A DNA stretch of 64,000 nucleotides, from positions 3,354 through 67,353 of the forward strand of contig CAWFQG010000028.1 in assembly GCA_963817825.1 (NCBI GenBank), in the 5' to 3' direction. The position numbers were made by a program, and so were the translations under genes. This DNA is from an uncultured Actinomycetota bacterium. GTDB taxonomy: Bacteria > Actinomycetota > Actinomycetes > Mycobacteriales > Mycobacteriaceae. Below, piece by piece: positions 29,007 through 48,157 of the stretch. Under the pieces are notes generated by a model. The model ran no database searches. It was not told the DNA's origin and worked only from the letters and a program-made list of their open reading frames with translations. The stretch's first letter is position 1. Every line of letters starts with the position of its first letter.

Positions 29007-30580
29007 CGCGCCGGGCCTTCCGCCAGTTTGGGTGCGGGATCGGGTTGGTCGATCGTGGTCAAGGTGTGGTTGACGGCCGGATTGATCACGTCCAGAGCCA
29101 CTTTCGGATATACGCCGAGCACCAGTAGCAAGGCGATCAGCGGCGCCACCACCGCTAGCTCGCGGGGCACGAGATCGCGCAGCCGGTCGTTACCGTCGGC
29201 TAGATGGTCCGGCACGGGTCCGCCCATCATCCGTTGGTACATCCACAGGATGTAGACCGCGGACAGCACCAGGGCGCTCGACGCGACCACCGCGAACACC
29301 GGGTAACGCGTGAATGTGCCGATCAGCACCAGGAATTCGCTGATGAACGGCGCCAGCCCCGGAAGGGACAGCGTCGCCAACCCGGAGACCAGGAACGTGC
29401 CAGCCAGCACCGGTGCCACCTTCTGCACGCCGCCGTAGTCGGCGATCAACCGGGTTCCCTTGCGGGACACCAGGAATCCGGCGATCAAGAACAGTGCCGC
29501 CGTGGATATCCCGTGGTTGACCATGTAGAGCGTGGAACCGGACTGGCCCTGCGATGTCATCACGAAGATGCCGAGGATGATGAAGCCGAAGTGGGAGATC
29601 GACGTGTACGCGATCAGCCGCATGACATCGGTCTGCCCGATCGCCAGGATCGCGCCGTAGACGATGCCGACCACCGCCAGCGTGATGATCAACGGCCGGA
29701 AATACGCTGATGCGTCGGGGAACATCTGCAGGCAGTACCGCAGCATGCCGAAGGTGCCGACCTTGTCCATGATGGCCATCATCAGCACCGCGCTCGCCGG
29801 GGTCGCCTCGACCGCCGCATCGGGCAGCCAGCGGTGGAACGGCCACAGCGGTGCCTTCACCGCGAACGCGAACATGAAGCCGAGGAACAGCGCGTTGAGG
29901 ATCGCCGGGTTCACCGCGAGGGCGCCACTGGACACCGCCGCGACGATCGCCCGGAAGTCGAAGGTGCCTGCGCCGAAGGCGTCGCTCTGGGCGGTCACCA
30001 CGTACAGGCCGACGACCGCGGCCAACATGATCAACCCGCCGAACAGGTTGTACAGCAGGAATTTCACCGCAGCCTTCGAACGCTGCTCGCCGCCGAACCC
30101 GCCGATGAGGAAGTACATCGGGATGAGCATGGCCTCGAAGAAGACGTAGAACAGCAGCACGTCCAGCGAGATCAGCGACATGACGACCATGCCCTCGACG
30201 GCCAGCGTCAGCGCCAAGTACGTGTGGGTGGACCGGCCGCGCAGACCGACCTGGTCGTCGGCGTCGTTCCATCCGGCCACGATCAGCAGCGGCACCAGGA
30301 CTGCCGTCAGCACGATGAGCGCCAGCGCGATGCCGTCGATGCCGAGGATGTAGCCGGTGCCGAAAGACGGTATCCAGGGATGGGATTCGACGAATTGGTA
30401 TTGCGGGCCGCTCGGGTTGAAGCCGACCGCCAGCGCGATGCCCAGCGCCAGCACGACGACCGAGATCAGCAGCGCGAACCATTTGGCCAGCGCACGCCCT
30501 GAGGCGGGAATGAGCATCACCAGCGGGGCGCCCAGCATCGGCACCGCCCACAGAATCGTCAGCCAGGGGATCGAGGTCAC
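29003..30580 (-). CDS. nuoM: NADH-quinone oxidoreductase subunit M
   Basis: [25 protein letters not shown]; GTG 30580 overlaps the nuoL stop. Confidence 0.97.
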
Positions 30581-32490
30581 CACAGTTGCACCGCCAGGAA
30601 CACCGCGACGACCAGCACCGCGCCCGCGAGCATGGACAGCGCGTAGGAGCGGGCGAACCCGGTCTGCAGACCGCGTAGGCCGTCCGATACCCGACCGACG
30701 ACTGCGGCCAATCCGCTTCCGGCGCCGTCGATGCCCTTGTCGTCGAACCAGACCAGGTCCTTGGTCAGGACTTGGCCTGGCTTCATGAGCAACTCCTCGT
30801 TGATCGCATCGCCGTAAAGGTCTCTGCGCGCGGCCACGGTCAGCGCCGACACGTCTTCGGGCGCGGTATCGGGCACCGTGCGCTGCGCGTACATGCGGTA
30901 GGCGATGACGATGCCGACGGCGACCACAGACAGCACGATGACGGTGACGACCCAGGCGGGCAGCGCGTGATGTTCTTCGTGCGTGCCGACGACCGGTTCC
31001 AGCCAGTGGTCCAGCGTGCCGTTGATGGCCAGTGCGCCACCGGATACCACGGAGCCGACGGCCAGCAGGATCATCGGCCATGTCATCACGCCCGGTGACT
31101 CGTGCGGGTGGGGCTCTACTGTTTCTCCCGTCGCTGCGCTCGCCGAGGGTTTCCACCGCCGCTCGCCGAAGAATGTCATCAGCATGACGCGGGTCATGTA
31201 GTACGCGGTGATGCCTGCACCGAGGATCGTCGCGAGGCCCAGCACGATGCCCTTGGCTCCGCCCGCCCCGAGCGCGGCCTCGATGATGCCGTCCTTCGAG
31301 AAGAAGCCCGCCAGCGGCGGTATGCCGATGATCGCGAGGTAGCCGAGCCCGAAGGTGGCGAACGTGATCGGCAGCAGCGTGCGCAGGCCGCCGTAGTGGC
31401 GCATGTTCACTTCATCGTCCATCGCGTGCATCACCGAGCCTGCGCCGAGGAACAGGCCGGCTTTGAAGAAGCCGTGGGTCAGCAGGTGCATGATCGCGAC
31501 CGCATACCCGGCGGGTCCGAGGCCCGCGGCGAGCACCATGTAGCCGATCTGGCTCATGGTGGACGCGGCGAGCGCCTTCTTGATGTCGTCCTTGGCGCAA
31601 CCGATGATCGCGCCGAACAGCAGGGTCACCGCGCCGACGATGACGACACCCAGCTGGGCACCGGGAGCGAGGTTGAACAGCGGGCCCGACCGAACGATCA
31701 GGTAGACACCCGCGGTGACCATCGTCGCCGCGTGAATCAGCGCAGACACCGGGGTGGGGCCCTCCATAGCGTCGCCGAGCCAGGACTGCAGCGGCACCTG
31801 TGCCGACTTACCGCAGGCGGCGAGTAGTAGAAGCAGCCCGATGGCGTTGAGCGTGCCCTGGCCCAGCTGCGGCGCGGCGGCGAAGACACCTTCGAACGAG
31901 ATCGAACCGATGTAGGCGAACATCACCATCTGCGCGATGGCGAGGCCGATGTCACCGACACGGTTGACCACGAACGCCTTCTTGGCCGCGGTGGCCGCCG
32001 ACGGCTTGTGCTGCCAGAACCCGATCAGCAAGTAGGACGCCAGGCCGACGCCTTCCCATCCGACGTAAAGGCCGAGGTAGTTGTCGGCGAGTACGAGCAG
32101 CAGCATGGCGGCGAGGAAAAGGTTCAGAAACGCGAAAAACCTGCGGCGCTCGGGATCTTCGGCCATGTAGCCGACCGAGTAGATGTGGATGAGCGAGCCG
32201 ACGCCGGTGATCAGCAGGACGAAGCACATCGACAGCTGGTCGAGCTGAAGGCCGAAGTCGACGTGCAGCGCACCGACCGGCACCCACGAGAACAACTTCT
32301 CGTGGATCAACCGCTGCTCTCCGGTCTGGCCGAGCATGTGGGCGAACAACATCGCCCCGACGGCGAACGACGCGAGCGAGGTGGCACAGCCAAGCAGGTG
32401 CCCCCACGGGTTGGAGCGCTGCCCGGACAGCAGCAGTATCGCCGCGCCGGCCAGGGGCAGGGCGATCAGGAGCCAAACCGGAATCGTCAT
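30577..32490 (-). CDS. nuoL: NADH-quinone oxidoreductase subunit L
   Basis: [38 protein letters not shown]. Confidence 0.97.
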
Positions 32491-32497
32491 CGCGGCC

Positions 32498-32797
32498 CTA
32501 GTTTTTCAGCAGGCTGGCGTCGTCGACCGAGGTCGACCGCCGGGTGCGGAAGATGGTCATGATGATGGCCAGGCCGACCACCACCTCACAGGCCGCGACC
32601 ACCATGGTGAAGAACGCCACCACCTGGCCGTCGAGGTGCCCGTGCATACGGGAGAACGCCACGAAGGCCAGGTTCGCCGCGTTCAGCATCAGCTCGACGC
32701 ACATGAACATCACGATGGCGTTGCGGCGCAACAGGACTCCTGACGCGCCGATCGTGAACAACAGTGCGGACAGATACAGATAGTTATCGGGGTTCAT
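32498..32797 (-). CDS. nuoK: NADH-quinone oxidoreductase subunit K
   Basis: [22 protein letters not shown]. Confidence 0.97.
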
Positions 32798-33491
32798 CCA
32801 CGCTCCGTCGTTGCAGGATCGCGCTGACCGACAGCTCGGAGCCCGAACCGTCCGGCAGACGCGCCTCGATATCCACGGCGTTGTGCCGGGCGAACACGCC
32901 GGGTGCTGGCAGCGGCGTCGGGTGCCCGCCGGGCCGGAACCGTTCCTCGGCCAGTTCACGCTGAGTCTTGGCGTGCTCGAACCGCTCCCGATGCGCCAGC
33001 ACCATGGCGCCGAGAGCGGCGGTGATCAACAGCGCGCCGGTCAACTCGAACGCCCACAGGTAGCGGGTGAAGATCAGCGCCGCCAAACCTTCCACGTTCA
33101 TGTTGGCGTTGGCCTCCGGCAGCCCCTTGAATCCGCCCACCGACACGTTGCCGATGCCCGCGACCAGCAGCACGCCGAAGCCGACGCCGGAGATGATCGC
33201 CGCATAGCGTTGGCCGCGAATGGTTTCCACGAGCGACTCCGACAGGTCAACGCCGATCAGCATCATCACGAACAGGAATAGCATCATCACCGCGCCGGTG
33301 TAGACGACCACCTGAACGACGCCGAGGAACAGCGCCTCCTGCGCGATGTAGAGCACGGCGAGCGAGATCATCGTGGTGGCAAGGAATATCGCCGAATACA
33401 CGGCCTTCCGCGCGGCCACCACCCCGATCGCCCCGAGCAGCGCGATGGCGCCGACCACCCAGAAGACGACCGCCTCCGCCGTCGACGTCAT
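32784..33491 (-). CDS. nuoJ: NADH-quinone oxidoreductase subunit J
   Basis: [24 protein letters not shown]. Confidence 0.95.
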
Positions 33492-34012
33492 TGGATGTCC
33501 TCGGTGATGGGTTTGATGTTGCCCAGGTAGTAGTCCTCGTCGGTGCTGCCGTGTTGCATCGCGTGCGGCGGCGCCTCCATGCCGGGCTGCATCGGCGCGA
33601 GCAGCTTGTCCTTGCCCCAGATCAGGTCGGCGCGATTGTCGTCGGCCATCTCGTAGTCGTTGATCATGGTCAGCGCGCGGGTGGGGCAGGCCTCGATGCA
33701 CAGCCCGCAGCCGATGCACCGCAGATAGTTGATCTGGTACACCCGGCCGTAGCGCTCGCCGGGTGAGAACCGTTCGTCCTCCGTGTTGTTGTCACCCTCG
33801 ACGTAGATCGCGTCGGCGGGGCAGGCCCATGCGCACAGCTCACAGCCGATGCACTTCTCCAGCCCGTCGGGGTAGCGGTTCAGCTGGTGCCTGCCGTGGT
33901 AGCGCTTGGCCACCGGCCCGGGCTTCTCCGGATACTCCTCGGTGATCGGCTTCTTGAACATGGTCCCGAAGGTGACCGCGAAGCCTGCGATGGCGTCGAG
34001 GAACTTAGGCAT
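33488..34012 (-). CDS. nuoI: NADH-quinone oxidoreductase subunit I
   Basis: Two 4Fe-4S motifs [12 protein letters not shown] and [12 protein letters not shown]. Confidence 0.97.
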
Positions 34013-35225
34013 CAGCTCTCTCCTTTGCCGTGGGTAACGGCGGTACCGGGAATGCGTTGGCATCTATGGCCTGCTCCGGGATCTTTCGAACGGTTCTGGC
34101 TCGCAAAGCCCGCCACAGCGCCAGGGCGACAAGGAGCGCCAACACGGTGCCGACGGTGATGAGGGCGGTGGCCCATGCGGTGTAGCCGTGCGTGCGCAGG
34201 CTGTGTGTGGTGGCCACGATCGCGATCCATACCAGCGAAACCGGGATGAGGATCTTCCACCCGAGGCTCATGAACTGGTCGTAGCGCAGCCGCGGCAGGC
34301 TGGCTCGTAGCCAGAAGTAGACGAACAGGAACGCCCACACCTTGGCGGTGAACCACAGCAGCGGCCACCAGCCGGTGTTGGCGCCGTCCCATATGCTGAT
34401 CGGCCATGGGGCGTGCCAGCCGCCGAGGAACATCGTGGTGGCCAGCGCCGAAACGGTGGTCATGTTGACGTATTCGGCGAGCATGAACATCGCGAACTTC
34501 AGCGACGAGTACTCGGTGTGGAAGCCGCCGACCAGTTCGCCCTCGGCCTCGGGCAAATCGAATGGGGCGCGGTTGGTTTCGCCGACCATCGACGTCGCGT
34601 ACACCAGAAACGACGGCAGCAGCAGGAACACGAACCAGATGCGGTCCTGGGCGGCCACGATGCCCGAGGTGGACATGGTGCCCGCGTAGAGGAACACCGC
34701 GGCGAATGACAGTGCCATGGCGATCTCGTAGGAGATCACCTGCGCGGACGACCGCAGCCCGCCGAGCAGGGGATAGGTGGAGCCCGACGCCCAACCGGCC
34801 AGCACGATGCCGTACACCCCGATCGAGGTGACGGCGAGGATGTAGAGCACCGCGACCGCCAGGTCGGTCAGTTGCAACGGGGTGTGGTGACCGAATACCG
34901 AGACCACCGGACCCATGGGGATGACGGCGAACGCCATGAATGCCGGGACGGTCGAGATGATCGGCGCGAGCAGGTAGATGGGCTTGTCCACGCCTGTCGG
35001 GATGAGGCCTTCCTTCAGGCCGAGCTTGATGCCGTCGACCAGTGACTGCAGCAGCCCTTTGGGGCCAACCCGGTTGGGGCCGAAGCGCATCTGCATGCGG
35101 CCAAGCAACTTTCGCTCGATCAGGATGGCCGCCAGCACGGTCAGCAGGAGGAACACGAAGATGCCGAGCGCCTTGACCAGGATCAGCCAGATCGGATCGT
35201 GCCCGAACGCCGAGAGGTCAGTCAT
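34005..35225 (-). CDS. nuoH: NADH-quinone oxidoreductase subunit H
   Basis: [41 protein letters not shown]. Confidence 0.97.
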
Positions 35226-37612
35226 TGTTCAGCCCGCCCGATCGAGACCACGGCACCCGTGGTCACACCCAGTTGTTCATTGACCGCGGACCCAGGTGAG
35301 TTCAGCGGTAGCCACACCACTCGGTCGTCCATGTCGGTGACCTCGAGAGGCAACGTGATCTCACCGCGCGCCGTGGCGACGGTGATCGAATCTCCTTTGG
35401 CGGCGCCGATTTCGGCCGCTGTGGCTGCAGACAGCCGGGCAACGGGCGCGTGGGCGGTTCCGGCGAGGGAGGGCTCGCCGTCCTGTAGCCGCCCGGCATC
35501 CAGCAGCATCCGCCAGCCGGTCAGCACCGCCTCGCCCTTGCCGGGCTGGACGGTGTTGGCCGCAGCGACGTCCGGCGCGCTCGGCCGCGTGCCACCCCAC
35601 CAGCCGAGCCGGGCCAGTTCCTCGCCCGCCGCCGCCGCGTTGGGGAGACCGAGGTCGATGCCGATCTCGTCGGCGAGCGTGTACAGCACCCGCAGGTCGG
35701 GCGCCGCGTTAGTCGGCAGCGCAGGCTCGAATGGGCGAATCCGGCCTTCCCAGTTGACGAATGAGCCCGCCTTCTCGACCACGGGCGCGACCGGGAAGAC
35801 CACGTCGGCGAGGTCGGTGACCGCGCTTTCCCGCAGCTCCAGGCTGACGACGAAGGGCACCGCCTCGATGGCCGCCAGTGCGGCGTCGGGTTCGGGCAGG
35901 TCGGCGGCTTCGACACCACCGATCAGCAGCGCGCCCAGCTCGCCACCGGCCGCCGCGGCGAGAATGCCTGCGGTGTCACGGCCTTCGGCGTCGGGCAGGT
36001 CGGACATGTGCCACGCTGCGGCGGTCTGCTCCCGCGCGGTGCCGTCGGCGACCGGCCTGCCGCCGGGCAGCAGGTTGGGCAGCGCGCCCACCTCGAGTGC
36101 CCCGCGGTCTCCCGCGCGTCGGGGCACCCAGCCCAGCCGCGCGCCTGTCGCCGCCGCCAGTCTGTTTGCCGCGGAGAGCGCTCCCGGCGATGTCGCAAGC
36201 CGCTCACCGACCAGGATGACGGCGCCCGGTTGGTTGAGCAGCGTCTCTTCGGCAAGGCCATCGAGCGCTGCCGCTTCACCGCCCGGCGCGCTGCGGATGA
36301 GCTTGCCGGACATCTTGGTCAGGCCGCGGGTGGCGAACGGCGCGATGGAGAGCACCTGCACACCGTTCTTGCGGGCGGCCTTACGCAGCCGCAGGAAGAC
36401 GATGGGGGACTCCTCCTCCGGCTCGAAGCCGGCCAGCAGTACCGCGGGTGCCTTCTCCAGGTCGGCGTACGTGACCGCCATCGGCTGGCCCGCGACGTTC
36501 GACGCAAGGAACTCCGCCTCTTCCACGCTGTGCGGGCGGATCCGGAAGTCGATGTCGTTGGTGCCCAACACCATCCGGGCGAACTTCGAGTATGCGTAGG
36601 CGTCCTCGACGGTGCTCCTGCCGCCGACCAGCACCCCGGCACGTCCCGCCGCGGCCGCCAGCCCGGTCGCCGCGACGCGCAGCGCTTCCGCCCAAGACGC
36701 GGGCCGCAGTTTGCCATCCTCTTCCCGGATCTGTGGCGTGGTGATGCGGTCGCCGACCGTGGCGTAGTTGAACGCCCAGCGGCCCTTGTCGCAGTTCCAC
36801 TCCTCGTTGACCTCGGGGTCGTCGCCCGCCAACCGGCGCAACACTTTTCCACGCCGGTGGTCGGTGCGCTGGGCGCATCCGGACGCGCAGTGCTCGCATG
36901 CGCTTGGGCTCGACACCAGGTCGAAGGGCCGCGCCCGGAACCGATAGGCCGTGTTGGTCAACGCGCCGACCGGGCAGATCTGCACGGTGTTACCCGAGAA
37001 ATACGACGAGAACGGCTCACCGGGCGCGATGCCGACCTGCTGCAGGGCACCGCGCTCCAGCAGCTCGATGAACGGGTCACCTGCGATCTGCTGGGAGAAG
37101 CGGGTGCATCGCGCGCACAGCACACACCGCTCGCGGTCCAGTAGCACTTCTGCGGAGATCGGAATCGGTTTGGGGAACGTGCGTTTGACGTCTTCGAACC
37201 GGGTCTCCGCGCGGCCGTTCGACATGGCCTGGTTCTGCAGCGGGCACTCGCCGCCCTTGTCGCATACCGGGCAGTCGAGTGGGTGGTTGATCAGCAGCAG
37301 CTCCATCACACCCTGCTGGGCCTTGTCGGCGTCCTCGGACGTGAACTGCGTGCGGACCACCATGTCGGGGGTACATGTGATGGTGCATGACGCCATCGGC
37401 TTGCGCTGGCCCTCCACCTCGACCAGGCACTGCCTGCAGGCGCCCACCGGATCCAGAAGCGGATGATCGCAGAACCGCGGGATCTGGACGCCCATCAGTT
37501 CTGCCGCGCGAATCACCAAGGTGCCCTTGGGCACACTGATCGGCACGTCATCGATGGTCAGATTCACCATCTCCACTGCAGTCGCATCCTGCGTCGGTTC
37601 GGTCACCGTCAT
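35222..37612 (-). CDS. nuoG: NADH-quinone oxidoreductase subunit G
   Basis: PRFCDH...[35 protein letters not shown]. Confidence 0.97.
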
Positions 37613-38937
37613 CAGGCACCCACCCCCTCGGTCGCCATCAATGTCGAGGCGTGCGGATCGAACGGGCAGCCACCGTCCAGGTGCTCGACGTACTCGTCGC
37701 GGAAGAACTTGATGGACGACAGGATCGGGCTCGCCGCGCCATCGCCCAAGGCGCAGAACGACTTCCCGAAGATGATGTCGGAGATGTCCAGCAGCTTCTG
37801 GATGTCCTCTTCGGTGCCGCGCCCGGTTTCGAGCCGCTCGTAGATCTGGCTCAGCCAGTACGTGCCCTCGCGGCACGGCGTGCACTTGCCGCACGACTCG
37901 TGCGCGTAGAACTCGGTCCAGCGCCGCACCGCGCGCACGACGCAGGTGGTCTCGTCGAAGATCTGCAGTGCCTTCGTACCGAGCATCGAGCCGACTCCGG
38001 CCATGCCCTCGTAATCCAGTGGCACGTCGAGGTGTTCGTCGGTCAGCAGCGGGGTGGACGAGCCGCCCGGCGTCCAGAACTTCAGCGAATGATCGGCCCG
38101 GATCCCGCCGGCATACTCGAGGAGCTCGCGCAGCGTAATGCCCAGCGGCGCCTCGTACTGGCCGGGATTCGTCACATGCCCAGACAGCGAGTACAGCGTG
38201 AAGCCGCGTGACTTGTCCGTACCCATCGACCGGAACCAATCGATCCCGTTGAGCATGATCGGTGGCACGCTCGCGATGGATTCCACGTTGTTGACCACCG
38301 TGGGGCAGGCATACAAGCCGGCCACCGCTGGGAACGGTGGGCGCAGTCGGGGCTGACCGCGCCTGCCCTCGAGGGAGTCAAGCAGTGCAGTCTCCTCGCC
38401 GCAGATGTAGGCGCCCGCGCCCGCGTGCACGATCAACTCGAGGTCGAAGCCCGAACCCTTGATGTCAGTGCCCAGATAGCCGGCCTCGTAGGCCTCGGCG
38501 ACCGCGGCCTGCAGCCGCCGCAGCACCGGGATCACCTCACCGCGCACGTAGATGAAGGCGTGGTGCGCCCGGATCGCGTACGCAGCGATGATCGCACCCT
38601 CCACCAGGAAGTGCGGCGTCGTCAGCATCAACGGAATGTCTTTGCACGTACCGGGTTCCGACTCGTCGGCGTTGATCACAAGATAGTGCGGCTTGGCGCC
38701 GGCGCCGGTGTCCTCCTGGGGGATGAAGGACCACTTGGTGCCGGTCGGGAAGCCCGCGCCGCCGCGGCCGCGCAGGCCGGAGTCCTTGATCATTGCGATG
38801 ACGTCGTCGGGACCCATCGCCAGCGCCTTGTCCAGCGCGCGGTACCCGTCGTGGCGGCGGTAGGTGTCCATCGACCAGGGTTCGGGATCATCCCAGTACC
38901 GGCTGAACACGGGTGTCAGAGGAGTAGCAGGTGCCAT
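37612..38937 (-). CDS. nuoF: NADH-quinone oxidoreductase subunit F
   Basis: [42 protein letters not shown]. Confidence 0.97.
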
Positions 38938-38938
38938 A

Positions 38939-39838
38939 TCAGTCGCGTGAATCCGTTTTGTTCGGGTCGGTTTCGGGGGTGGCTGCTTCAGCAGGAACGG
39001 TCGCGGACGGTGCGGGCGCCGGTTCGTCCTTGGTGGTTTCGACGGCCTCGGGTTTGGTGCCGTCGTCCTTCGGCGGCCTCGTCGTCCTGTCGTCGCCGTT
39101 CGGCGGCGGTGGCGCTTCCATGCCGAGTTCGCGCGCGACGCGCAGCCCGGCCAGTGTCGCTGTGGGCACCTGGCCGTCGGCCGTGACCGGGCGATCGTCG
39201 TGCAGACCCGCGAGTATGCGTTCGGTCTCGCGGAAGGTGCACAGCGGCGCACCACGGCTGGGAACCACGGACTCACCCGCACGCAGCGAGTCGACAAGAT
39301 CCCTTGCGGTGGAAGGGGTTTGGTTGTCGAAGAACTCCCAGTTGACCATGACGACCGGCGCGTAGTCGCAGGCGGCGTTGCACTCGACGTGCTCAAGGGT
39401 GACGCGGCCGTCGTCGGTGGTCTGGCCCGCGTGGATGCCCAGGTGGTCCTGCAGCGAATCGAGGATGGCGTCGCCGCCCATGATCGCGCAAAGGGTGTTC
39501 GTGCAGACGCCGACCAGGTATTCGCCGGTGGGGCTGCGCCGATACATCGAGTAGAAGGTGGCGACCGCCGTCACCTCGGCGTCGGTCAGGTCGAGCTGGG
39601 CCGCGCAGAATGCGATGCCCGCCTTGGTCAGGTAGCCGTCCTCCGACTGCACCAGGTGCAGCAGTGGCAGCAGAGCCGACCGCGAGCGCGGATACCTGGC
39701 CATGATGTCCTTGGCGGTGGTCGCCAGCCGGGCGGTCACGTCGGCCGGGTAGGCCGAGGTGCCGCCGATCGGTGGACCGGCCTCGTCGGGGCGCTGGCCC
39801 AGCTCGATGAACACCGGCGAACCGTTGGGCGTCGTCAT
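38939..39838 (-). CDS. nuoE: NADH-quinone oxidoreductase subunit E (with P/E/T/D-rich C-terminal tail)
   Basis: CTNTLC and CNAAC 2Fe-2S ligands. Confidence 0.95.
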
Positions 39839-41169
39839 CTGTCAACACCGCCCATTACCGGGTCGATAGACGCGACCGCGGAGATGGCGTCGGCGACCAT
39901 GCCGCCTTCACACATGGCGGCCACGGCCTGCAAGTTCGTGAACGATGGGTCGCGGTAGTGCGCGCGGTAGGGCCGGGTGCCGCCGTCGGAGACCATGTGC
40001 ACGCCGAGCTCGCCGCGCGGCGACTCCACCGCCACGTAGACCTGTCCCGGTGGCACCCGGATGCCCTCGGTGACGAGTTTGAAGTGGTGGATCAGGCCCT
40101 CCATCGAACGGCCCATGATCTTCGCGATGTGCTCCGGTGAGTTGCCGAGCCCGTCGGGCCCCAGTTTCAGGTCGGCGGGCCAGGCAAGCTTCTTGTCCTG
40201 GATGATCACGGGTTCGCCGGCCAGCCGCTCGAGCCGCTCGACGCACTGCTCGATGATCTTCAGCGCTTCGTGCATCTCCTTGACCCTGATCAGGTAACGG
40301 CCGTAGGCGTCGCATCCGTCGTCGGTGATGACGTCGAAGTCGTAGGTCTCGTAGCCGCAGTACGGCTGCGACTTGCGCAGATCGTGGGGCAGCCCGGTGG
40401 AGCGCAGACACGGGCCGGTGATGCCGAGCGCCATGCATCCGGCCAGGTCCAGGTAGCCGATGCCCTGGGTGCGGGCCTTCCAGATGTAGTTCTCGGTGAG
40501 AAGGTCCTCGAGGTCCTTCAACCGCTTCGGCATCAGCTTGAGCATGTCGCGGATCTGCGGGAGGGCTTCGTCCGGCAGGTCCATCGCGACGCCACCCGGC
40601 CGGATGTAGGCGTTGTTCATCCTCAGCCCGGTGATCGTCTCGAAGATCGACAGAATCTGCTCGCGCTCCCGGAATCCGTAGAACATCGCGCCCATGGAGC
40701 CCAGCTCCATCCCAGCGGTGGCAAGCGCCACCAGATGCGACGAGATGCGGTTCATCTCCATCATCATCACGCGGATGACGTTGGCGCGTTCAGGGATGTC
40801 GTCGGTGACATCGAGCAGTTTCTCGACGCCGAGGCAGTACACGGTTTCGTTGAAAAGCGGTGAGAGGTAATCCATTCGGGTCACGAACGTGACGCCCTGG
40901 GTCCAGGTGCGGTACTCCAGGTTCTTCTCGATGCCGGTGTGCAGGTATCCGATGCCGCAGCGGGCCTCGGTGATCGTCTCGCCCTCGATCTCCAGGATCA
41001 GCCGCAACACCCCGTGCGTCGACGGGTGCTGCGGGCCCATGTTGACGACGATCCGTTCGCCGGCCTGCGCCTGGGCGGCAGCCGTGACCACTTCGTCCCA
41101 GTCCTCACCGCCGACCACGACGACGGTGTCGGTTCCCCCGCTGTCCGGCGGGGTTGATGGCGTGCTCAT
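39835..41169 (-). CDS. nuoD: NADH-quinone oxidoreductase subunit D
   Basis: [32 protein letters not shown]. Confidence 0.97.
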
Positions 41170-41855
41170 CAGTTGTATGACCTCCGCTCGTCGGGCGGTG
41201 GGATCTCGGCGCCGTGGTACTCCACGGGGATCCCGCCCAACGGGTAGTCCTTGCGCTGCGGGTGCCCCACCCAGTCATCGGGCATTTCGATGCGGGTCAG
41301 GGCGGGGTGGCCGTCGAAGATGATCCCGAAGAAGTCGTAGGTCTCCCGCTCGTGCCAGTCGGTGGTCGGGTAGACGGTGAACAGCGACGGGATGTGCGGG
41401 TCGGCGTCCGGTGCGGCGGCCTCGACCTGGATGCGCCGGTTGTGAGTGATGGACATCAGCGGATACACGGCGTGCAGTTCGCGGTCGGTGTCCTGCGGGT
41501 AGTGCACGCCGCTGACGCCAAGGCACAGCTCGAAGCGCAGGCCGGGGTCGTCCCGCAGCGTCTGCATGACCGCGGGCAGATGCTCGCGCCGCACCTCCAG
41601 CGTCAGCTGGTCGCGGAACACCACCACCCGCTCGACCGCCGCCAGGTATGCCTCTTCGCCGAGTGAGGCGGTCAGCGCGTCGACGACCTCGTCGAAGTAA
41701 CCGCCGTAGGGCCGCGGCGAGCTGGCGGGCATCGCCACCTCGCGGACCAGTCGCCCGTATCCAGAGGTGTCGCCGCTGCCCGTCGGGCCGAACATGCCGC
41801 GGCGCACGCCGACGACTTCCTGTTCGCTCTTGCTGTTGGTGTCGCTGTCCGTCAC
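41169..41855 (-). CDS. nuoC: NADH-quinone oxidoreductase subunit C
   Basis: [22 protein letters not shown]. Confidence 0.97.
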
Positions 41856-42406
41856 CGCAACAGACCCTTCAACTCGATCGTCGGCGTGACCGCGAGCGCC
41901 GCCTTTTCGGCTTCGCGGACAGCCTCCTCACGGTTGACGCCCAGCGGCATCTCCTGGATCTTGTCGTGCAGCTTCAGGATCGCGTGCAGCAGCATCTCCG
42001 GCCGCGGCGGGCATCCGGGCAGGTAGATGTCGACGGGAACGACGTGGTCAACGCCCTGGACGATGGCGTAGTTGTTGAACATCCCGCCCGACGAGGCGCA
42101 CACGCCCATCGCCAGCACCCACTTGGGCTCGGCCATCTGGTCGTAGACCTGCCGCAGCACCGGCGCCATCTTCTGGCTCACGCGGCCGGCCACGATCATC
42201 AGGTCGGCCTGCCGGGGCGTCGCCGAGAACCGCTCCATGCCGAATCGCGAGATGTCGAAACGCGGCCCGGCGGTCGCCATCATCTCGATGGCGCAGCAGG
42301 CCAGGCCGAACGTCGCGGGCCACAGCGAGCCCTTGCGGACGTAGCCCGCCAGCTTCTCGACGGTCGACAGCAGGATGCCGCTGGGCAGCTTTTCCTCTAG
42401 TCCCAA
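41852..42406 (-). CDS. nuoB: NADH-quinone oxidoreductase subunit B
   Basis: [25 protein letters not shown]. Confidence 0.97.
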
Positions 42407-42768
42407 CTCAGGCCTCCCCGCCGCCAGACATAGGCATAGGCCACGAACACCGTGGCCATGAACAAAAGCATCTCGACCAGCGCGAACACCCCGAGGCCGT
42501 CGAAGGCGACCGCCCAGGGGTAGAGGAACACGATCTCGATGTCGAAGACGATGAACAGCATCGCCGTCACGTAGTACTTCATCGGGAACCGCTGGCCGGC
42601 CGCCTGGGGATTGGCCATTTCAGGCACCGGCTCGATGCCGCACTCGTAGGCCTCCAGCTTGGCCCGGTTGAAGCGCCTCGGGCCGCCAAGTAGCGCAGCG
42701 ACTACCGAGAACACGGCAAACCCGGCGGCAATAGCGCCGAGCACCAGGATGGGCAGATACAGACTCAT
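42397..42768 (-). CDS. nuoA: NADH-quinone oxidoreductase subunit A
   Basis: [23 protein letters not shown]. Confidence 0.97.
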
Positions 42769-42801
42769 GCGATAGTGACCGCTCCCTCGTGGGCTTTCCG
42801 A

Positions 42802-42817
42802 TGTGAGCTGACCCACA
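42802..42817. promoter_or_regulatory. CRP-type site upstream of nuoA
   Basis: TGTGA-GCTGAC-CCACA, one mismatch to TGTGA-N6-TCACA. Confidence 0.55.
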
Positions 42818-42934: not shown

Positions 42935-43336
42935 CTATTGCACGGGTGCCCGCAGCAGTGACACCACGGCCTCGCCCAAACGGATCGGGTCGATCGGGTG
43001 CGGAACCGCGGCTTCGGCGCGCGACCAACGTGCCAGCCAGGCGTCGTCCGGGCGCCCGGTCAGCACCAGGATCGGCGGGCAATCGTCGAGCTCGTCCTTG
43101 AGCTGCTTGGCTATTCCCATGCCGCCGAAGGGGGTGGCCTCGCCGTCGAGGATCACCAGATCGAATCCGCCCGCGTCCATCTGCTCGATCACCATCGGCG
43201 CGGTGGCCACCTCGAGATAGCTCAACTCGGGTAGGTCCGGAGACACACGCTTGCCCAGCGCCAGCTGAACCTGTTCGCGAGTCCTCGGATTGTCGCTGTA
43301 GACGAGGATCCGCAGCGGCCGAGATGAATCGGGCAT
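42935..43336 (-). CDS. Stand-alone receiver-domain protein (Rv3143-like)
   Basis: ILVYSDN, DLVILDGEA; immediately upstream of nuoA. Confidence 0.9.
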   Translation of the reverse strand: MPDSSRPLRILVYSDNPRTREQVQLALGKRVSPDLPELSYLEVATAPMVIEQMDAGGFDLVILDGEATPFGGMGIAKQLKDELDDCPPILVLTGRPDDAWLARWSRAEAAVPHPIDPIRLGEAVVSLLRAPVQ

Positions 43337-43359
43337 GTGCCAGATGCTAAACCAACCGG

Positions 43360-43896
43360 CTAAGACCCGGTGCGGCGGAACACGACGTCGCCCGAGATCG
43401 TCGCGTTGTCGCCGATCATCCCCATCATGTTGCCGTCGACCCCGAAGTCCTGGCGGTTGATGTCGGCCTGGCTGGTGATGCGCACGGCGCCGTCGTCGAG
43501 CACCGTTATCTTCGCTTTCAGGGGTACCGGCGTGGTGGTGCCCTTGACAGTGAGATCGGCTCGCAGATCGACCGTGTCGCTGCCGATTCCGTCTGTGCCG
43601 GTGATGACGACGCTGATGTCGGGGTACTTCTCGACTTCGAAGAAATCGGCTGAGCGTAGATGATTGTCACGCTTGCCGATCTTCGTGTTCAATGACGCGG
43701 CCTTGATGTCAATACGTCCGAAAATTGTTGCAGGATCGGTTATTTGACCGTCGCCGCTGAAGTCGCTGTATGTTCCCTTCACCGGGACGAGTCCCCACAT
43801 CGACTTTGCCTTGAATCCGATGGTCGATCGTTCGGGTACGAGGGTCCACACACCCACCGATTGGGCGTTGGTGAGCAGTTCTTTCAAGTTCGTCAC
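43360..43896 (-). CDS. YceI-family lipid/polyisoprenoid-binding protein
   Basis: 'KSMWGLVPVKG', 'KRDNHLRSADFFEVEKYP', 'LTVKG', 'NRQDFGV'; own GTG at 43896. Confidence 0.85.
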   Translation of the reverse strand: MTNLKELLTNAQSVGVWTLVPERSTIGFKAKSMWGLVPVKGTYSDFSGDGQITDPATIFGRIDIKAASLNTKIGKRDNHLRSADFFEVEKYPDISVVITGTDGIGSDTVDLRADLTVKGTTTPVPLKAKITVLDDGAVRITSQADINRQDFGVDGNMMGMIGDNATISGDVVFRRTGS

Positions 43897-44274
43897 AACA
43901 ATGGCTCCACTTCTCTCGGGTCGAAATATTCGTCGATTCGCTCTATCAGGCCGTCGGTCGCCCACCTTAATGACGATGCAGACCCGCATTTCGATCGATC
44001 CACCGTTGCGGCCGGTGGCATGGAGGATGTGCTGCTGAACGAAACCGCCGTCGAAAAACTGCCGGTCGAGTATCTCGTAGCGCCGCTCGGTGGTGGTGTT
44101 CATGAACCAGAAGATGACGCGCAGCGCTCGTTTCTTCGCCTGGTCCTCGGGTTCGGCGGACTTCCACACCACGACGTCGTCGTCCCAGAGTGCCGCGACC
44201 GCATCCGCGTCGCCCGCCTCGATAGCGGCGAACAGTCGGTCGGCGACGCCGGCGACGGTATCAACGGCGGTCAT
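43893..44274 (-). pseudogene. SnoaL/NTF2-like protein; +1 insertion reads it through in frame into YceI
   Basis: The shifted frame after about 43957 gives the expected end DGLIERIDEYFDPREVEPLL-TGA overlapping the YceI GTG. Confidence 0.75.
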
Positions 44275-44295
44275 TCAATACCTCCTCGTGCTCAG

Positions 44296-44326
44296 TTGAC
44301 CTGAAGTTCGGTTGAGGTACAACACT
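44296..44326 (+). promoter_or_regulatory. MerR/SoxR-type promoter-operator
   Basis: TTGACC (-35), dyad CCTGAA-GTTCGG-TTGAGG (44300-44317), 19-bp spacer to AACACT. Confidence 0.6.
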
Positions 44327-44332
44327 GACCTC

Positions 44333-44962
44333 ATGGATACGACTTCTGCCATCTCCATTTTCGAAGAGTTCTATCGGTCGAGTACCCCGCCGTGGGTGAT
44401 CGGCGAACCACAACCCGCGATTGTCGAGCTGGAACGGGCGGGGCTGATCAAGGGCAAGGTGCTCGACATCGGCTGCGGAACGGGCGACAACACGATTCTG
44501 CTCACCCGGCTGGGCTACGACGTGCTCGGCATCGATTTCGCGCCGCGGGCCGTGGAGCAGGCCCGACGGAACGCCGAGGCCGAGGGCGTTGGCGCGCGCT
44601 TCGAGGTCGCCGACGCGATGAATCTGGGTCACGAGCCGCGCTACAACACCATCGTCGACAGCGCGCTGTTCCACATCTTCGACGAGACCGACCGGCCCAA
44701 GTACGTCGCCAGCCTGCATGGCGCGTGCCAACCCGGCGGCATCGTGCACGTGCTCGCGCTGTCCGATGCGGGCCGCGGATTCGGGCCGTCGGTGAGCGGG
44801 GAGGTCATTCGGGAAGCATTCGCCGACGGGTGGGTGCTGGAGTCGCTGGAGCCCTCGACCTATGGCGGCATCGTGACCGAATTGCACGCCGACGCGCTCA
44901 ACCTGCCTGTCGGCACCCGTCTCGACGAGCCTGCGTGGCTCGCCAGGGCTCGTCGCGTCTGA
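44333..44962 (+). CDS. Class I SAM-dependent methyltransferase (Rv0560c/TPMT-like)
   Basis: PPWVIGEPQP, VLDIGCGTG, GIDFAP, IVDSALFH. Confidence 0.9.
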   Translation: MDTTSAISIFEEFYRSSTPPWVIGEPQPAIVELERAGLIKGKVLDIGCGTGDNTILLTRLGYDVLGIDFAPRAVEQARRNAEAEGVGARFEVADAMNLGHEPRYNTIVDSALFHIFDETDRPKYVASLHGACQPGGIVHVLALSDAGRGFGPSVSGEVIREAFADGWVLESLEPSTYGGIVTELHADALNLPVGTRLDEPAWLARARRV

Positions 44963-44979
44963 TTCAAACGACACAAAAC

Positions 44980-45345
44980 TCACTTGCCCTCGTCATAGCC
45001 GGGGTGTGCAACGGCCAGCCGGTGACGCACCAGCGTGCGTAGGCACGGCAACACCTCGACTGCCCTGCCGTCGAGTTCGCCGGCGCGGATGGCCGCCGCC
45101 AGCTGGGCCTCGTCGTCGAACCCCAGGTCGCCCAGCGCCGCGGTGACCTCGCCCGCGGTCTGATCGAGCAGTTCGCGCTCGACGGTGCGCAGCACGTTGG
45201 CGGCGACGCGGGCGTGGAAGGACACCTGCCCTGCGTCGACGAGCCGACCATCAGGCCGGAGCGCCTCCCGCACATCGCCTTCGAGGAAGTCGGCGACGGC
45301 CGCGACCAGTTCGGCGGCGGTGGGTCGCCCGTACATCGAGCTCAC
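44980..45345 (-). CDS. Small helical protein, DUF6285/LvaB-like
   Basis: 'GRPTAAELVAAVADFL...FHARVAANVLRTVEREL...LAVAHPGY'; GTG overlaps the kinase stop. Confidence 0.75.
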   Translation of the reverse strand: MSSMYGRPTAAELVAAVADFLEGDVREALRPDGRLVDAGQVSFHARVAANVLRTVERELLDQTAGEVTAALGDLGFDDEAQLAAAIRAGELDGRAVEVLPCLRTLVRHRLAVAHPGYDEGK

Positions 45346-46301
45346 CGTGGGCCGCCTCCCTCCAGCAGGTCGAGCACGTCCCATTCGGTCTCGCTGACGC
45401 GTCGCCCGATCGCGGCCAGCTCGACCGACGGGGTCTGCCCGGACAGATGGCGCTCGGCCTGAAACCGGCAGATGACGCCCCAGCGCAGCGTGGCCACGGT
45501 CAGCCACCACCGGAACGCGTCGCGGTCGACGGTCACACCGGCAGCCTCCTCGTAGGCGGACAGGAAGCTCTCGACGCTGCCGAGGCCGCCTGCGCCGAGC
45601 GCCTCGGGCGCGCCGAACCGCCATGCCCTGATGCAGAACCAGGCCAGGTCCTCGTAGACCTCGCCGATGTGGACGAGTTCCCAGTCCAGGACGGCGGCCA
45701 GGCCGGACTCGTCGACGATCAGGTTGCCCATCCGGAAATCGCCGTGCACCAGCCGCGGCGGTGTCGGCGGCGGCCGATGTGCGGCCAGCCACCGAAACGC
45801 CCACTCGAAGGTTGCGGTGGTGTCGCCCATCTCGTCGAGCCGGTCGCGCCACTCGGCCAGTTGTTCGGTCTGTGCAAGGCCGATCCCGTCGGGGTCGGCA
45901 CGATGGATGGCCGCAAGTGCCTGGGCGCACTGCCGCAGCAGCCGGTTGCGCCCGGCGTCATCGAGGGCGCGCTGGATCCGCCTGACGATCGTCTCGCCTT
46001 CGATGGCGTTGCAGATCAGGTACGGATTGCCCAGTGCAGCAGCCGAATTGTCGGCCGCCAGGATATCGGGGACCGGCGCCCCTGCCGCCGCCGCCCGCTG
46101 CTGGACGGCGGCTTCGAGTTCCATGGCCGCGTGCACGTCGTCGGGTGGGCCGGTGCGAAGAATCAGAGCCTGTCGGGTGCCGTTGGCAACCGCGTCGAAC
46201 GCCCACGTAGTGCGGCTGGCCCCGCCCGTCAGGGTGCACAGGTTCTCGATGCTCACCTCGCCGATGACCGGCCGGAGAACTTCTGCGAGTTGGTCATTCA
46301 C
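45342..46301 (-). CDS. APH-family phosphotransferase (LvaA/ACAD10-kinase-like)
   Basis: LTGGASRTTW, HGDFRMGNL, LDWELVHIG. Confidence 0.9.
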   Translation of the reverse strand: MNDQLAEVLRPVIGEVSIENLCTLTGGASRTTWAFDAVANGTRQALILRTGPPDDVHAAMELEAAVQQRAAAAGAPVPDILAADNSAAALGNPYLICNAIEGETIVRRIQRALDDAGRNRLLRQCAQALAAIHRADPDGIGLAQTEQLAEWRDRLDEMGDTTATFEWAFRWLAAHRPPPTPPRLVHGDFRMGNLIVDESGLAAVLDWELVHIGEVYEDLAWFCIRAWRFGAPEALGAGGLGSVESFLSAYEEAAGVTVDRDAFRWWLTVATLRWGVICRFQAERHLSGQTPSVELAAIGRRVSETEWDVLDLLEGGGPR

Positions 46302-47536
46302 TTGCGGCCGAATCCGAAGAGCCGCTGCGCCACTCGGCGGATCTGGATCTCTTCTGCGCCCTCGGTGATCCGGTAGCGCCGGTGATGGCGGTAGATGTGC
46401 TCGAACGGCTCATGCCTGCTGTAGCCGACGCCACCGAATACCTGCATCGCCCGGTCGGCGGCCTCGCACACCAGCCGGTTGGCGCGATAGTTGGCCATCG
46501 ACACCTTGTCCGACACTTCCATATGGTGGTTGCCGTCGAGTTGGGTGGCCGCGTAGTACACCAGCAGCCGCACCATCTGCGCCTCGGTCTGCAGCTCCAC
46601 AAGCGGCCACTGCACCGCCTGGTTGACGGCCAGTGGCTTGCCGAACACGTTGCGGTCGTTGGCGTATCCGACGGCGCGGTCGATGCAGTACTGCGCGGCG
46701 CCCAGGCTGCTCGCTGCCTGCCGAATCCTGTTCTCATGCAGGAACGTCTGCCCGACCTCGAGGCCACGGTCCACCTCGCCGAGCACGGCGTCGCCGGGCA
46801 CTCGGACGTCCTTGAGCTCGACCTCACCATGGTCGGTAGGCATGTTGAACGTCCACCAGTAGTACGGCACGGTGAATCCGGGCGTGTTCGTCGGCACCAG
46901 GAACGCGGTGATGCCGCGGGCCTGGCCCGGCTCTCCCGAGGTGCGTGCGAAGACCAGGTCGTGTGTGGCCCTGTGCACACCGGTGTTGAACCGCTTGGCG
47001 CCGTTGATGACCCAGCCGTCGCCGTCGGCCTCGGCGCGTGTCTCGAGCCACGTGGCGTCGGACCCGTGGTTCGGCTCGGTCAGCCCGAACGCCATCGACC
47101 GCTCACCGGTGATCAGCGCGTCGGTCCACTCCTGCTTCTGCGACTCGGTGCCAAACCGGTCCATCATGATGACCTGCGGGAAGTTGCCGACGATCGACGA
47201 CTCGTCCTGCAGGTCATTGTGCAGCCCGAGGCCCTTGTGCGCCAAGTGTTCCCGGATCACCGCCATGTCGATGTTGGTGCCGTCACGGCCGCCGAAGCGC
47301 GACGGCAGCCCGTATCGTAGCCAGCCCGCCTTGTCGGCACGCCTGCGCATCTCGCCGAGCAGGTCCTCCCACTCCCGCCGCGGGATTCCGTCGTTGTCCC
47401 AGTCGGTGCGGGCGTTCTCGCGACGCTGGTCGAAGTACTGGATGTTCTCCCGTTCCAGCGGCTTGATCTCCTCTTCGATGAAGGCATCCATTTCGGCGAG
47501 TAGGCCCGGAAGGTGCTCGGGGAGAGCGAAATCCAC
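46298..47536 (-). CDS. Acyl-CoA dehydrogenase family protein (LvaC/ACAD11-like)
   Basis: GLTEPNHGSDA, RITEGAEEIQ. Confidence 0.9.
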   Translation of the reverse strand: MDFALPEHLPGLLAEMDAFIEEEIKPLERENIQYFDQRRENARTDWDNDGIPRREWEDLLGEMRRRADKAGWLRYGLPSRFGGRDGTNIDMAVIREHLAHKGLGLHNDLQDESSIVGNFPQVIMMDRFGTESQKQEWTDALITGERSMAFGLTEPNHGSDATWLETRAEADGDGWVINGAKRFNTGVHRATHDLVFARTSGEPGQARGITAFLVPTNTPGFTVPYYWWTFNMPTDHGEVELKDVRVPGDAVLGEVDRGLEVGQTFLHENRIRQAASSLGAAQYCIDRAVGYANDRNVFGKPLAVNQAVQWPLVELQTEAQMVRLLVYYAATQLDGNHHMEVSDKVSMANYRANRLVCEAADRAMQVFGGVGYSRHEPFEHIYRHHRRYRITEGAEEIQIRRVAQRLFGFGRK

Positions 47537-47554
47537 GTTGATCTCCTTGTGTCG

Positions 47555-48157
47555 TCAGAACCCGTACAGCGTCTTCTTCCAGATCGTCGAGAGCGTCGCG
47601 ATGGCGTCTTTGTCGCCGATCTCGACGCCGAGGCCGGACCGGCCGACGAAGACCGTGGTGAAGTTCTCGAACAGCAGCGCGATCGCGGCGGCCGTGTGCT
47701 CCGGGTTCAGCTCGGCGCCGTGGCCCTGTTCCTGGGCCCGGCGCACGGAGGCCGCGACGATGTCCATGCCGAAGCGCCGAAACTCGTTCTGGACATCGGC
47801 GAATCGCTGTTGGGTCGCGGCCAGCTGGGCGACCGCGATCATGATCCCGATGTTCTGCTTGAACATGTTCCAGTAGCCGGTGACGACCGACGTGAAGAAC
47901 TCGCTGTCATCGGGCGAGTCGGGCAGCGGCACGCTCAACCCCGACGGTGTGACGATGTCGCGCAGGAAGGACTCGGCCAACGCGGCCAGCAGGTCCTCCT
48001 TGTCGTCGAAGTAGCGGTAGAACACCGCCGGTGACTTGCCCGCCGCCGACGTGATGTCGGCCAGCGTGGTGCCGTGAAAACCGCGCTCGGCGAACAGCTT
48101 CCTGGCCGCCTGCTCGATGGCGTGCCGGGTCTGGCGGCCCTTGGGCGTGAGTGACAC
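47555..48157 (-). CDS. TetR/AcrR regulator
   Basis: TTLADITSAAGKSPAVFYRYFDDKEDL HTH. Confidence 0.9.
   Translation of the reverse strand: MSLTPKGRQTRHAIEQAARKLFAERGFHGTTLADITSAAGKSPAVFYRYFDDKEDLLAALAESFLRDIVTPSGLSVPLPDSPDDSEFFTSVVTGYWNMFKQNIGIMIAVAQLAATQQRFADVQNEFRRFGMDIVAASVRRAQEQGHGAELNPEHTAAAIALLFENFTTVFVGRSGLGVEIGDKDAIATLSTIWKKTLYGF

Follow-up and report, generated by a model that had tools for sequence, protein, structure and literature searches.

The window analyzed here is the whole 64,000-nucleotide stretch taken from contig CAWFQG010000028.1 of an uncultured member of the Mycobacteriaceae, and the element under study is the 58-bp gap between a methyltransferase gene and a divergently transcribed gene pair encoding SnoaL-like and YceI-like proteins. 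An inverted repeat lies in this gap between a -35 and a -10 hexamer and, judged by its sequence, is most likely a SoxR-type operator and promoter. The methyltransferase gene is predicted to be a SoxR-activated, probably leaderless, single-gene unit, a reading to which a probability of roughly 0.78 is assigned. For comparison, an orthologue search with one genome per species yielded 21 loci, whose proteins are 62-85% identical to the window enzyme; they come from isolates and metagenome-assembled genomes of Mycobacterium and Mycolicibacterium. The elements of the promoter and the gene behind it have the following window coordinates:

44296-44301, plus strand: -35 hexamer TTGACC, which shares its final two bases with the start of the dyad and is invariant in 21 of 21 orthologous promoters
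44299-44318, no strand assigned: predicted SoxR-type operator A-CCTGAA-GTTCGG-TTGAGG-T, with the core dyad at 44300-44317
44300-44305: left half-site CCTGAA, overlapping the -35 hexamer by 2 nt
44306-44311: six-nucleotide spacer (N6) GTTCGG
44312-44317: right half-site TTGAGG
44321-44326, plus strand: -10 hexamer AACACT, 3 nt past the dyad; A2 and T6 are invariant in the 21 loci
44333-44962, plus strand: methyltransferase gene (209 aa), encoding a class I S-adenosylmethionine (SAM) enzyme of the Ecm18/Htm (Rv0560c) clade

Between the divergent starts, CAT at 44272-44274 and ATG at 44333-44335, lie the 58 bp TCAATACCTCCTCGTGCTCAGTTGACCTGAAGTTCGGTTGAGGTACAACACTGACCTC, within which the whole block TTGACC/CCTGAA-N6-TTGAGG/TAC/AACACT occupies 44296-44326. 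The -35 and -10 hexamers are separated by 19 bp (44302-44320), a spacing found in 21 of 21 loci. A standard promoter scan of 43300-45100, which allows spacers of 16-18 bp, returned no promoter, as would be expected with this longer spacer. The dyad is imperfect, its left half reading CCTGAA instead of CCTCAA, the reverse complement of the right half, and it matches the SoxR consensus CCTCAA-N6-TTGAGG at 11 of 12 positions; most orthologues match at all 12. The same geometry, including the overlap of -35 hexamer and dyad, occurs in soxR-adjacent boxes of other taxa (e.g. TTGACCTCAAGTTAGGTTGAGGTCTTATAGT at locus L109), and the CCTGAA half-site variant is also present in one such box (L279). The Escherichia coli soxS promoter (TTTACCTCAAGTTAACTTGAGGAATTATACT) has a geometry identical to that of the site in the window. 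At the level of sequence, the site in the 58-bp gap has all the features of a SoxR-dependent promoter. The first-pass annotation had described these hexamers, the dyad and the 19-bp spacer, and each element was confirmed; the 58-bp length of the divergent gap follows from the start-codon coordinates, and the proposed SoxR signature within a 19-bp-spaced promoter agrees in both sequence and geometry and leaves a footprint across the 21 loci.

The pattern CCTSAA-N6-TTSAGG occurs once in the window, and with one mismatch allowed approximately 0.2 matches are expected by chance. In addition, a symmetric position matrix was built from 26 boxes found no more than a few kb from soxR in unrelated taxa. 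The window site scores 27.0 bits with this matrix, within the training range of 23-38, and the runner-up among ~128,000 positions reaches 5.4; the top score over 200 shuffles is 21.3 bits. Since the training sites had been chosen with the same loose regular expression, the matrix test is partly circular, and conservation, which is independent of the training pattern, is given greater weight. A search of the window for the exact soxS box with up to three mismatches returned no match because the site differs from that of E. coli at four positions, three of which lie in the N6 spacer.

Of the orthologous loci, 20 have intact DNA upstream of the methyltransferase gene, and in every one of them the box stands at the same distance from the ATG. 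Conservation of the dyad in orthologous promoters had been named as a check in the first-pass annotation, and the dyad is indeed kept in these 20 assessable loci while the flanks diverge. Aligned by their boxes, the 21 sequences show the following identity to the consensus, segment by segment:

30 nt upstream flank: 46%
-35 hexamer: 100%
left half-site: 98%
N6 spacer: 71%
right half-site: 94%
-10 hexamer: 94%
-10-to-ATG stretch: 61%

Variation of the dyad among the orthologous promoters is restricted to the fourth base of the half-site (CCT[C/G]AA, TT[G/C/T]AGG), which is also the base that varies in soxR-adjacent boxes, and the CCTGAA variant of the window recurs in identical form in an independent soil metagenome. 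No upstream box was found for approximately 59 more distant homologues (L022-L080), mycobacterial paralogues included.

A MerR-family gene was not found in the 64-kb window, and no SoxR-type MerR protein with the cluster motif is encoded within the ±6 kb fetched around any orthologue. One weak MerR-like match at 30122-30340 lies inside a nuo membrane-subunit gene and was rejected as spurious. The first-pass annotation had likewise seen no MerR gene in the window and had placed the regulator in trans, and a canonical soxR does lie elsewhere in genomes that hold orthologous promoters. The hallmark sought was a MerR-type helix-turn-helix together with the CX2CXCX5C [2Fe-2S] motif. Assembled contigs of locus-bearing isolates gave short matches to Nocardia soxR, with overhangs that translate to GLIHSRRTSG, LGIPLSRIRE and SLKTCALSNP. 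A DNA pattern derived from one of these overhangs matched 57 loci, exclusively in Mycobacteriaceae. A complete SoxR of ~145 aa (...SALHFYEREGLI-SRRTSGNQRRY...CIGCGCLSLKTCALSNPGD...) is encoded in all of them except for a few truncated or frameshifted copies. Ten assemblies, covering 11 orthologous loci, contain both a canonical soxR and the boxed methyltransferase gene, in the following pairs (methyltransferase locus/soxR locus):

L002/L295, L003/L288, L005/L310, L006 and L012/L282, L007/L315
L008/L319, L009/L321, L011/L289, L014/L284, L021/L312

Both genes are also present in Mycobacteriaceae bacterium 1482268.1 (soxR L285; methyltransferase P0063), and Logan contigs of four isolate runs contain a gap-free soxR of 412 nt at ~84% identity. 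The locus from the assembly titled Mycobacterium lehmannii (L013) is found in full in runs X21 and X22 and in part in runs X29 and X30. Two mycobacterial SoxR proteins score 217 and 213 bits against the NCBIfam SoxR equivalog TIGR01950, for which the cut-off is 116.9. One mycobacterial SoxR is 61% identical to E. coli SoxR, and its helix-turn-helix region is near-identical, which explains a shared operator. Searches for soxR in a plasmid collection returned no Mycobacterium.

The mycobacterial soxR genes also carry this dyad: at 54 of 55 loci, 1-3 nt separate the ATG of soxR from the end of CCTCAA-N6-TT[G/T/C]AGG (up to two mismatches), a finding that ties mycobacterial SoxR to this operator sequence. 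A soxbox has been reported upstream of M. smegmatis soxR, in agreement with these loci, and mutation of soxR in that species raises the expression of genes preceded by soxboxes (bioRxiv 10.1101/2022.12.18.519879). The N6 of the soxR dyad is mostly CTATGG or CTATTG, creating a plausible -10 hexamer (TATGGT or TATTGT) 7 nt before the ATG and suggesting that mycobacterial soxR is leaderless and autorepressed. The site at soxR itself thus has a repression geometry, and that of the methyltransferase gene an activation geometry. At one of the soxR loci (L319, 6836-6860), the divergent neighbour across the dyad is an arginine deiminase gene (Pfam PF02274, 4.7e-105). Two SoxR types occur in Mycobacteriaceae: the canonical type (L282-L338; SALHFYE...SGNQRRY...SLKTCALSNP) and a divergent type (L108 and L202-L205; SAIRFYE...GGQRRF...SLKRCAISNP), which is also encoded in Rhodococcus, Pseudonocardia and Frankia and whose relatives are mostly from non-mycobacterial actinobacteria.

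The methyltransferase gene probably yields a leaderless mRNA that starts at or next to its ATG. This is indicated by the distance between the end of the -10 hexamer and the ATG, fixed at 6 nt in the window and 6-7 nt in 21 of 21 loci, together with the lack of a Shine-Dalgarno (GGAGG) sequence upstream of the ATG across the 21 loci. Leaderless mRNAs are common in mycobacteria. Residues M1, D2 and T4 are invariant among close orthologues, and an in-frame TTG at 44312 sits within the operator and is unlikely to be used as the start; some gene callers extend the methyltransferase by five residues upstream. The next open reading frame (ORF), for a DUF6285 protein, is convergent and ends at 44980, so the methyltransferase gene is a single-gene unit.

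The enzyme matches Pfam Methyltransf_25 (7.6e-20) and Methyltransf_11, with weaker matches to TehB and TPMT, and no NCBIfam model scores above its cut-off. Its best match among the solved structures of the Protein Data Bank (PDB) is Ecm18 (4NEC; E 1.3e-45, 158.6 bits, 51% identity over 135 aa), followed by Rv0560c (7BGG; E 1.3e-29, 106.3 bits, 39% identity over 162 aa), which is named heterocyclic toxin methyltransferase (Htm) or 2-heptyl-1-hydroxyquinolin-4(1H)-one methyltransferase. Lower ranks are taken by two Methanosarcina enzymes and then by thiol methyltransferases and TehB. The N-terminal clade motif PPWxIGxPQP (PPW-IGEPQP) aligns with both 7BGG and 4NEC, and a Foldseek search with the predicted, low-confidence model gave the same ranking, with Ecm18 first and a TM-score of 0.75 to 7NDM/7BGG. 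The designation of the enzyme as Rv0560c-type in the first-pass annotation is therefore valid for the clade but wrong for orthology, because Ecm18 scores far better. In a protein database, 1,909 homologues were found at E <= 1e-10. The best 120 of these are 77-100% identical, 204-215 aa long and derive mostly from soil metagenomes, and the orthologue group is thus common in soil mycobacteria. At the L021 locus, the methyltransferase match covers residues 1-123 only, in a single segment. By analogy with its relatives, the enzyme's candidate substrate would be a heterocyclic N-hydroxy or N-H toxin, as suggested by Htm, or a dithiol or disulfide compound, as suggested by Ecm18 and the thiol methyltransferases; an oxyanion such as tellurite, in analogy to TehB, is a less likely substrate class.

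The following mechanism is proposed. TTGACC and AACACT, 19 bp apart, would be too distant for efficient use by unaided RNA polymerase, and a SoxR dimer encoded elsewhere on the chromosome would occupy the dyad between them. The SoxR dimer is bound to DNA in both redox states; redox-cycling compounds such as phenazines, quinones and viologens oxidize its [2Fe-2S] cluster by one electron, upon which the spacer is untwisted and remodelled and the promoter opens. Oxidized SoxR would then give rise to a transcript starting at or next to the ATG and encoding the 209-aa SAM-dependent small-molecule methyltransferase. In this scheme we infer from the sequence that SoxR binds, that redox-active compounds induce transcription and that the mRNA is leaderless; the function of the enzyme is likewise inferred. 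By analogy with its relatives, the enzyme may methylate and disarm a redox-active heterocycle or a thiol or disulfide toxin, a proposal with slightly less than even odds. The specific function suggested in the first-pass annotation, a methylation defence against redox-active antibiotics, is more tentative. It is doubtful, though conceivable, that the SoxR response of a clade of soil mycobacteria has a chemical-modification arm in which the toxin that oxidizes SoxR is itself methylated and inactivated by the SoxR-induced enzyme. Candidates for such a toxin are phenazines, quinolone N-oxides and dithiol or disulfide antibiotics of the epidithiodiketopiperazine and dithiolopyrrolone types, and the SnoaL and YceI proteins might be binding or handling proteins for the same compound.

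Several points weigh against SoxR control of the methyltransferase gene. The support is wholly computational and drawn from sequence; in the search for transcripts, one run of unspecified type yielded no more than scattered contigs of low depth. The soxR evidence comes from relatives, the window itself, whose sequence was otherwise found only in soil metagenomes, belonging to an uncultured soil Mycobacterium, and the narrow soxR pattern had no match in 9 of the 20 orthologue genomes, a result that is uninformative and not negative; one of these nine, M. lehmannii (L013), is covered by the isolate-run contigs. In the window, the left half-site deviates from the consensus (CCTGAA), and the -10 hexamer begins with A and not with T. 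Confidence in the predicted structure of the enzyme, modelled from a shallow alignment, is low (pLDDT 65.6). Finally, there is no methyltransferase among ten sampled targets of soxR-adjacent boxes, which comprise MFS, ABC, VOC/glyoxalase, ABM, transketolase, FMN and flavin reductases, RidA and ferredoxin.

On the other side of the operator, two genes are encoded on the minus strand:

43893-44274, minus strand: SnoaL-like (NTF2-fold) gene, Pfam SnoaL_2, with one extra base at 43960
43360-43896, minus strand: YceI-like (polyisoprenoid-binding type) gene, Pfam YceI (5e-34), whose GTG start overlaps the SnoaL stop (GTGA)

In the window, both are read as one 304-aa ORF only through the extra base at 43960; in the orthologues SnoaL and YceI are separate genes, with an intact SnoaL of ~125 aa. 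Removal of this base restores the SnoaL frame as KVGTDGLIERIDEYFDPREVEPLL, followed by a stop that overlaps the YceI GTG. In a soil-metagenome contig (run X2), base 43960 is absent, but so is a base at 43986. The insertion at 43960 stems either from faulty assembly or from a frameshift confined to the strain. The YceI part matches TT1927b and polyisoprenoid-binding proteins in the PDB, and the SnoaL part matches solved structures marginally. Several metagenome-assembled genomes (the set L001, L002, L012, L014 and L021) show partial YceI matches; partial matches to YceI or the methyltransferase represent either assembly indel errors or decay of an accessory module.

The gene order is conserved at all orthologous loci: genes for a response regulator, YceI and SnoaL point away from the box on one side, and on the other the methyltransferase gene faces convergent genes for DUF6285, an APH-like kinase and an acyl-CoA dehydrogenase. 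Identity is 44-91% for the three central genes versus 82-97% at most loci for the flanks, and such lower conservation is typical for an accessory module. In the surrounding DNA (29000-42816 and 42935-48157), the nuo (NADH dehydrogenase I) operon and a receiver-only response regulator immediately precede the module, and on its other flank lie DUF6285, an APH-family kinase, an acyl-CoA dehydrogenase and a TetR regulator.

This constant synteny is one point in favour of the first alternative, in which SoxR or another protein binds the dyad mainly to control the divergent SnoaL-YceI genes by occlusion or road-block, with the methyltransferase promoter being constitutive or secondarily affected. 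MerR and SoxR act in this way at their own divergent promoters, and the same dyad stands in a repression-type position at soxR itself. The SnoaL gene is preceded by a GGAGG ribosome-binding site, which implies a leadered mRNA, and its start lies 0-25 nt from the box across the loci, so that transcription of SnoaL has to start within the operator or on its far side. At four loci (L003, L006, L007 and L021; ~5960-5975), the 5' part of SnoaL abuts the -35 hexamer and dyad, its frame entering the operator, and the sole visible in-frame start is a TTG inside the operator (in the reverse complement of CCTCAA); with this TTG as the start, translation initiation would overlap the SoxR site. However, the invariant TTGACC and the conserved -10 hexamer flank the dyad only in the direction of the methyltransferase gene, at the diagnostic 19-bp spacing, and no TANNNT hexamer was found on the SnoaL strand within the conserved block. 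Control of SnoaL is improbable as the main function of the site, and it can coexist with activation of the methyltransferase gene. The proposal that SnoaL and YceI belong to the same regulated unit is as yet unsupported: the genes are always syntenic, but the promoter pair points only to the methyltransferase.

The activating regulator could instead be a different MerR-family protein with a SoxR-like recognition helix that responds to another signal, for example a metal, a drug or an electrophile. The MerR family has many members in mycobacteria, the divergent SoxR-like type (L108) occurs in some metagenome-assembled Mycobacteriaceae genomes and, since soxR is never adjacent to the methyltransferase gene, the link between the two depends on the sequence match alone. 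Nevertheless, CCTCAA-N6-TTGAGG recurs next to soxR in Proteobacteria, Actinobacteria and Deinococcus as well as at 54 of the 55 mycobacterial soxR genes, canonical SoxR is present in the relevant genomes and the operators of other well-studied MerR-family members differ from the SoxR dyad, which makes this alternative less probable still than control of SnoaL. The weakest alternative, a hairpin acting as an RNA element in the SnoaL 5' leader or as a terminator or attenuator, is scarcely credible and was rejected: the repeat can be folded into a stem of 7 bp around a 6-nt loop and 92.5% of the alignment cells pair, but the one variable pair is broken one-sidedly in 10 of 21 sequences, the lack of any compensatory change in the dyad indicates that a hairpin is not the conserved feature, the conserved block reaches past the stem to the -35 and -10 hexamers, and neither a T-run after the repeat nor a predicted terminator was found.

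Activation of the methyltransferase gene by SoxR remains the preferred reading. The SoxR regulon of mycobacteria has hardly been charted, with no more than three soxboxes predicted for M. smegmatis (bioRxiv 10.1101/2022.12.18.519879). The methyltransferase gene is a well-supported new predicted member of the SoxR regulon in environmental mycobacteria and, if the prediction is true, a conserved methyltransferase target would represent a new output class for SoxR. The regulatory logic is ordinary and follows the textbook, and no new kind of system is implied. The product of the gene is a candidate for the inactivation of redox-active natural products in soil competition. Methylation by Rv0560c inactivates antitubercular leads (PMC5526998), and for this reason a relative under SoxR induction would bear on the intrinsic drug tolerance of environmental and opportunistic mycobacteria. 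The chemical-modification arm, if it exists, would constitute a sensor-matched, inducible drug-modifying defence, as opposed to the usual pumps and reductases. The promoter also offers a compact natural case of predicted MerR-type activation feeding a leaderless mRNA. All of these implications depend on prediction.

Compared with known SoxR promoters, the site shares the 18-bp dyad CCTCAA-N6-TTGAGG, the 2-nt overlap with the -35 hexamer, the 3 nt between dyad and -10 hexamer and the 19-bp spacer, and it resembles SoxR systems that control a small set of genes directly and not through SoxS. Known direct SoxR targets comprise pumps, oxidoreductases, monooxygenases and similar proteins (PMC4146615). 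In contrast, the target predicted here is a methyltransferase, its mRNA is probably leaderless, one half-site in the window has a G at position 4 and soxR is unlinked. Transferases are said to be among the SoxR targets predicted in the 2008 survey by Dietrich and colleagues. With the published work on mycobacterial SoxR, the locus shares the same genus-level regulator, the soxbox at soxR and the link to resistance against redox-active compounds and drugs. It differs in that those papers give no methyltransferase target and in that it is located in other, mostly environmental mycobacteria (assemblies titled M. lehmannii and M. novocastrense, and many soil-metagenome genomes).

The enzyme and Rv0560c/Htm (PDB 7BGG, 7NDM) are small class I SAM methyltransferases of one clade and share the PPW-IGEPQP motif, but the enzyme is not an orthologue of Rv0560c and is predicted to be under SoxR instead of Rv2887 control. 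M. tuberculosis is not known to have a soxR. Rv0560c is an inducible xenobiotic-modifying enzyme; salicylate derepresses it via Rv2887, a MarR protein with a 27-bp binding site (PMC5526998). Because Rv0560c is governed by this MarR protein and salicylate, the SoxR wiring constitutes a real difference between the two. Ecm18, the best solved relative of the window enzyme and its top Foldseek match, is SAM-dependent and converts the disulfide of triostin A to the thioacetal of echinomycin (PMC9558604). Between its residues 172 and 198, it has an extra stretch of ~27 residues that the window enzyme lacks. A 19-aa echinomycin-binding stretch has been described that is absent from M. tuberculosis Rv1377c (PMC9558604). 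Finally, Ecm18 is a biosynthetic enzyme encoded within a gene cluster, whereas the methyltransferase gene of the window stands alone behind a predicted stress promoter.

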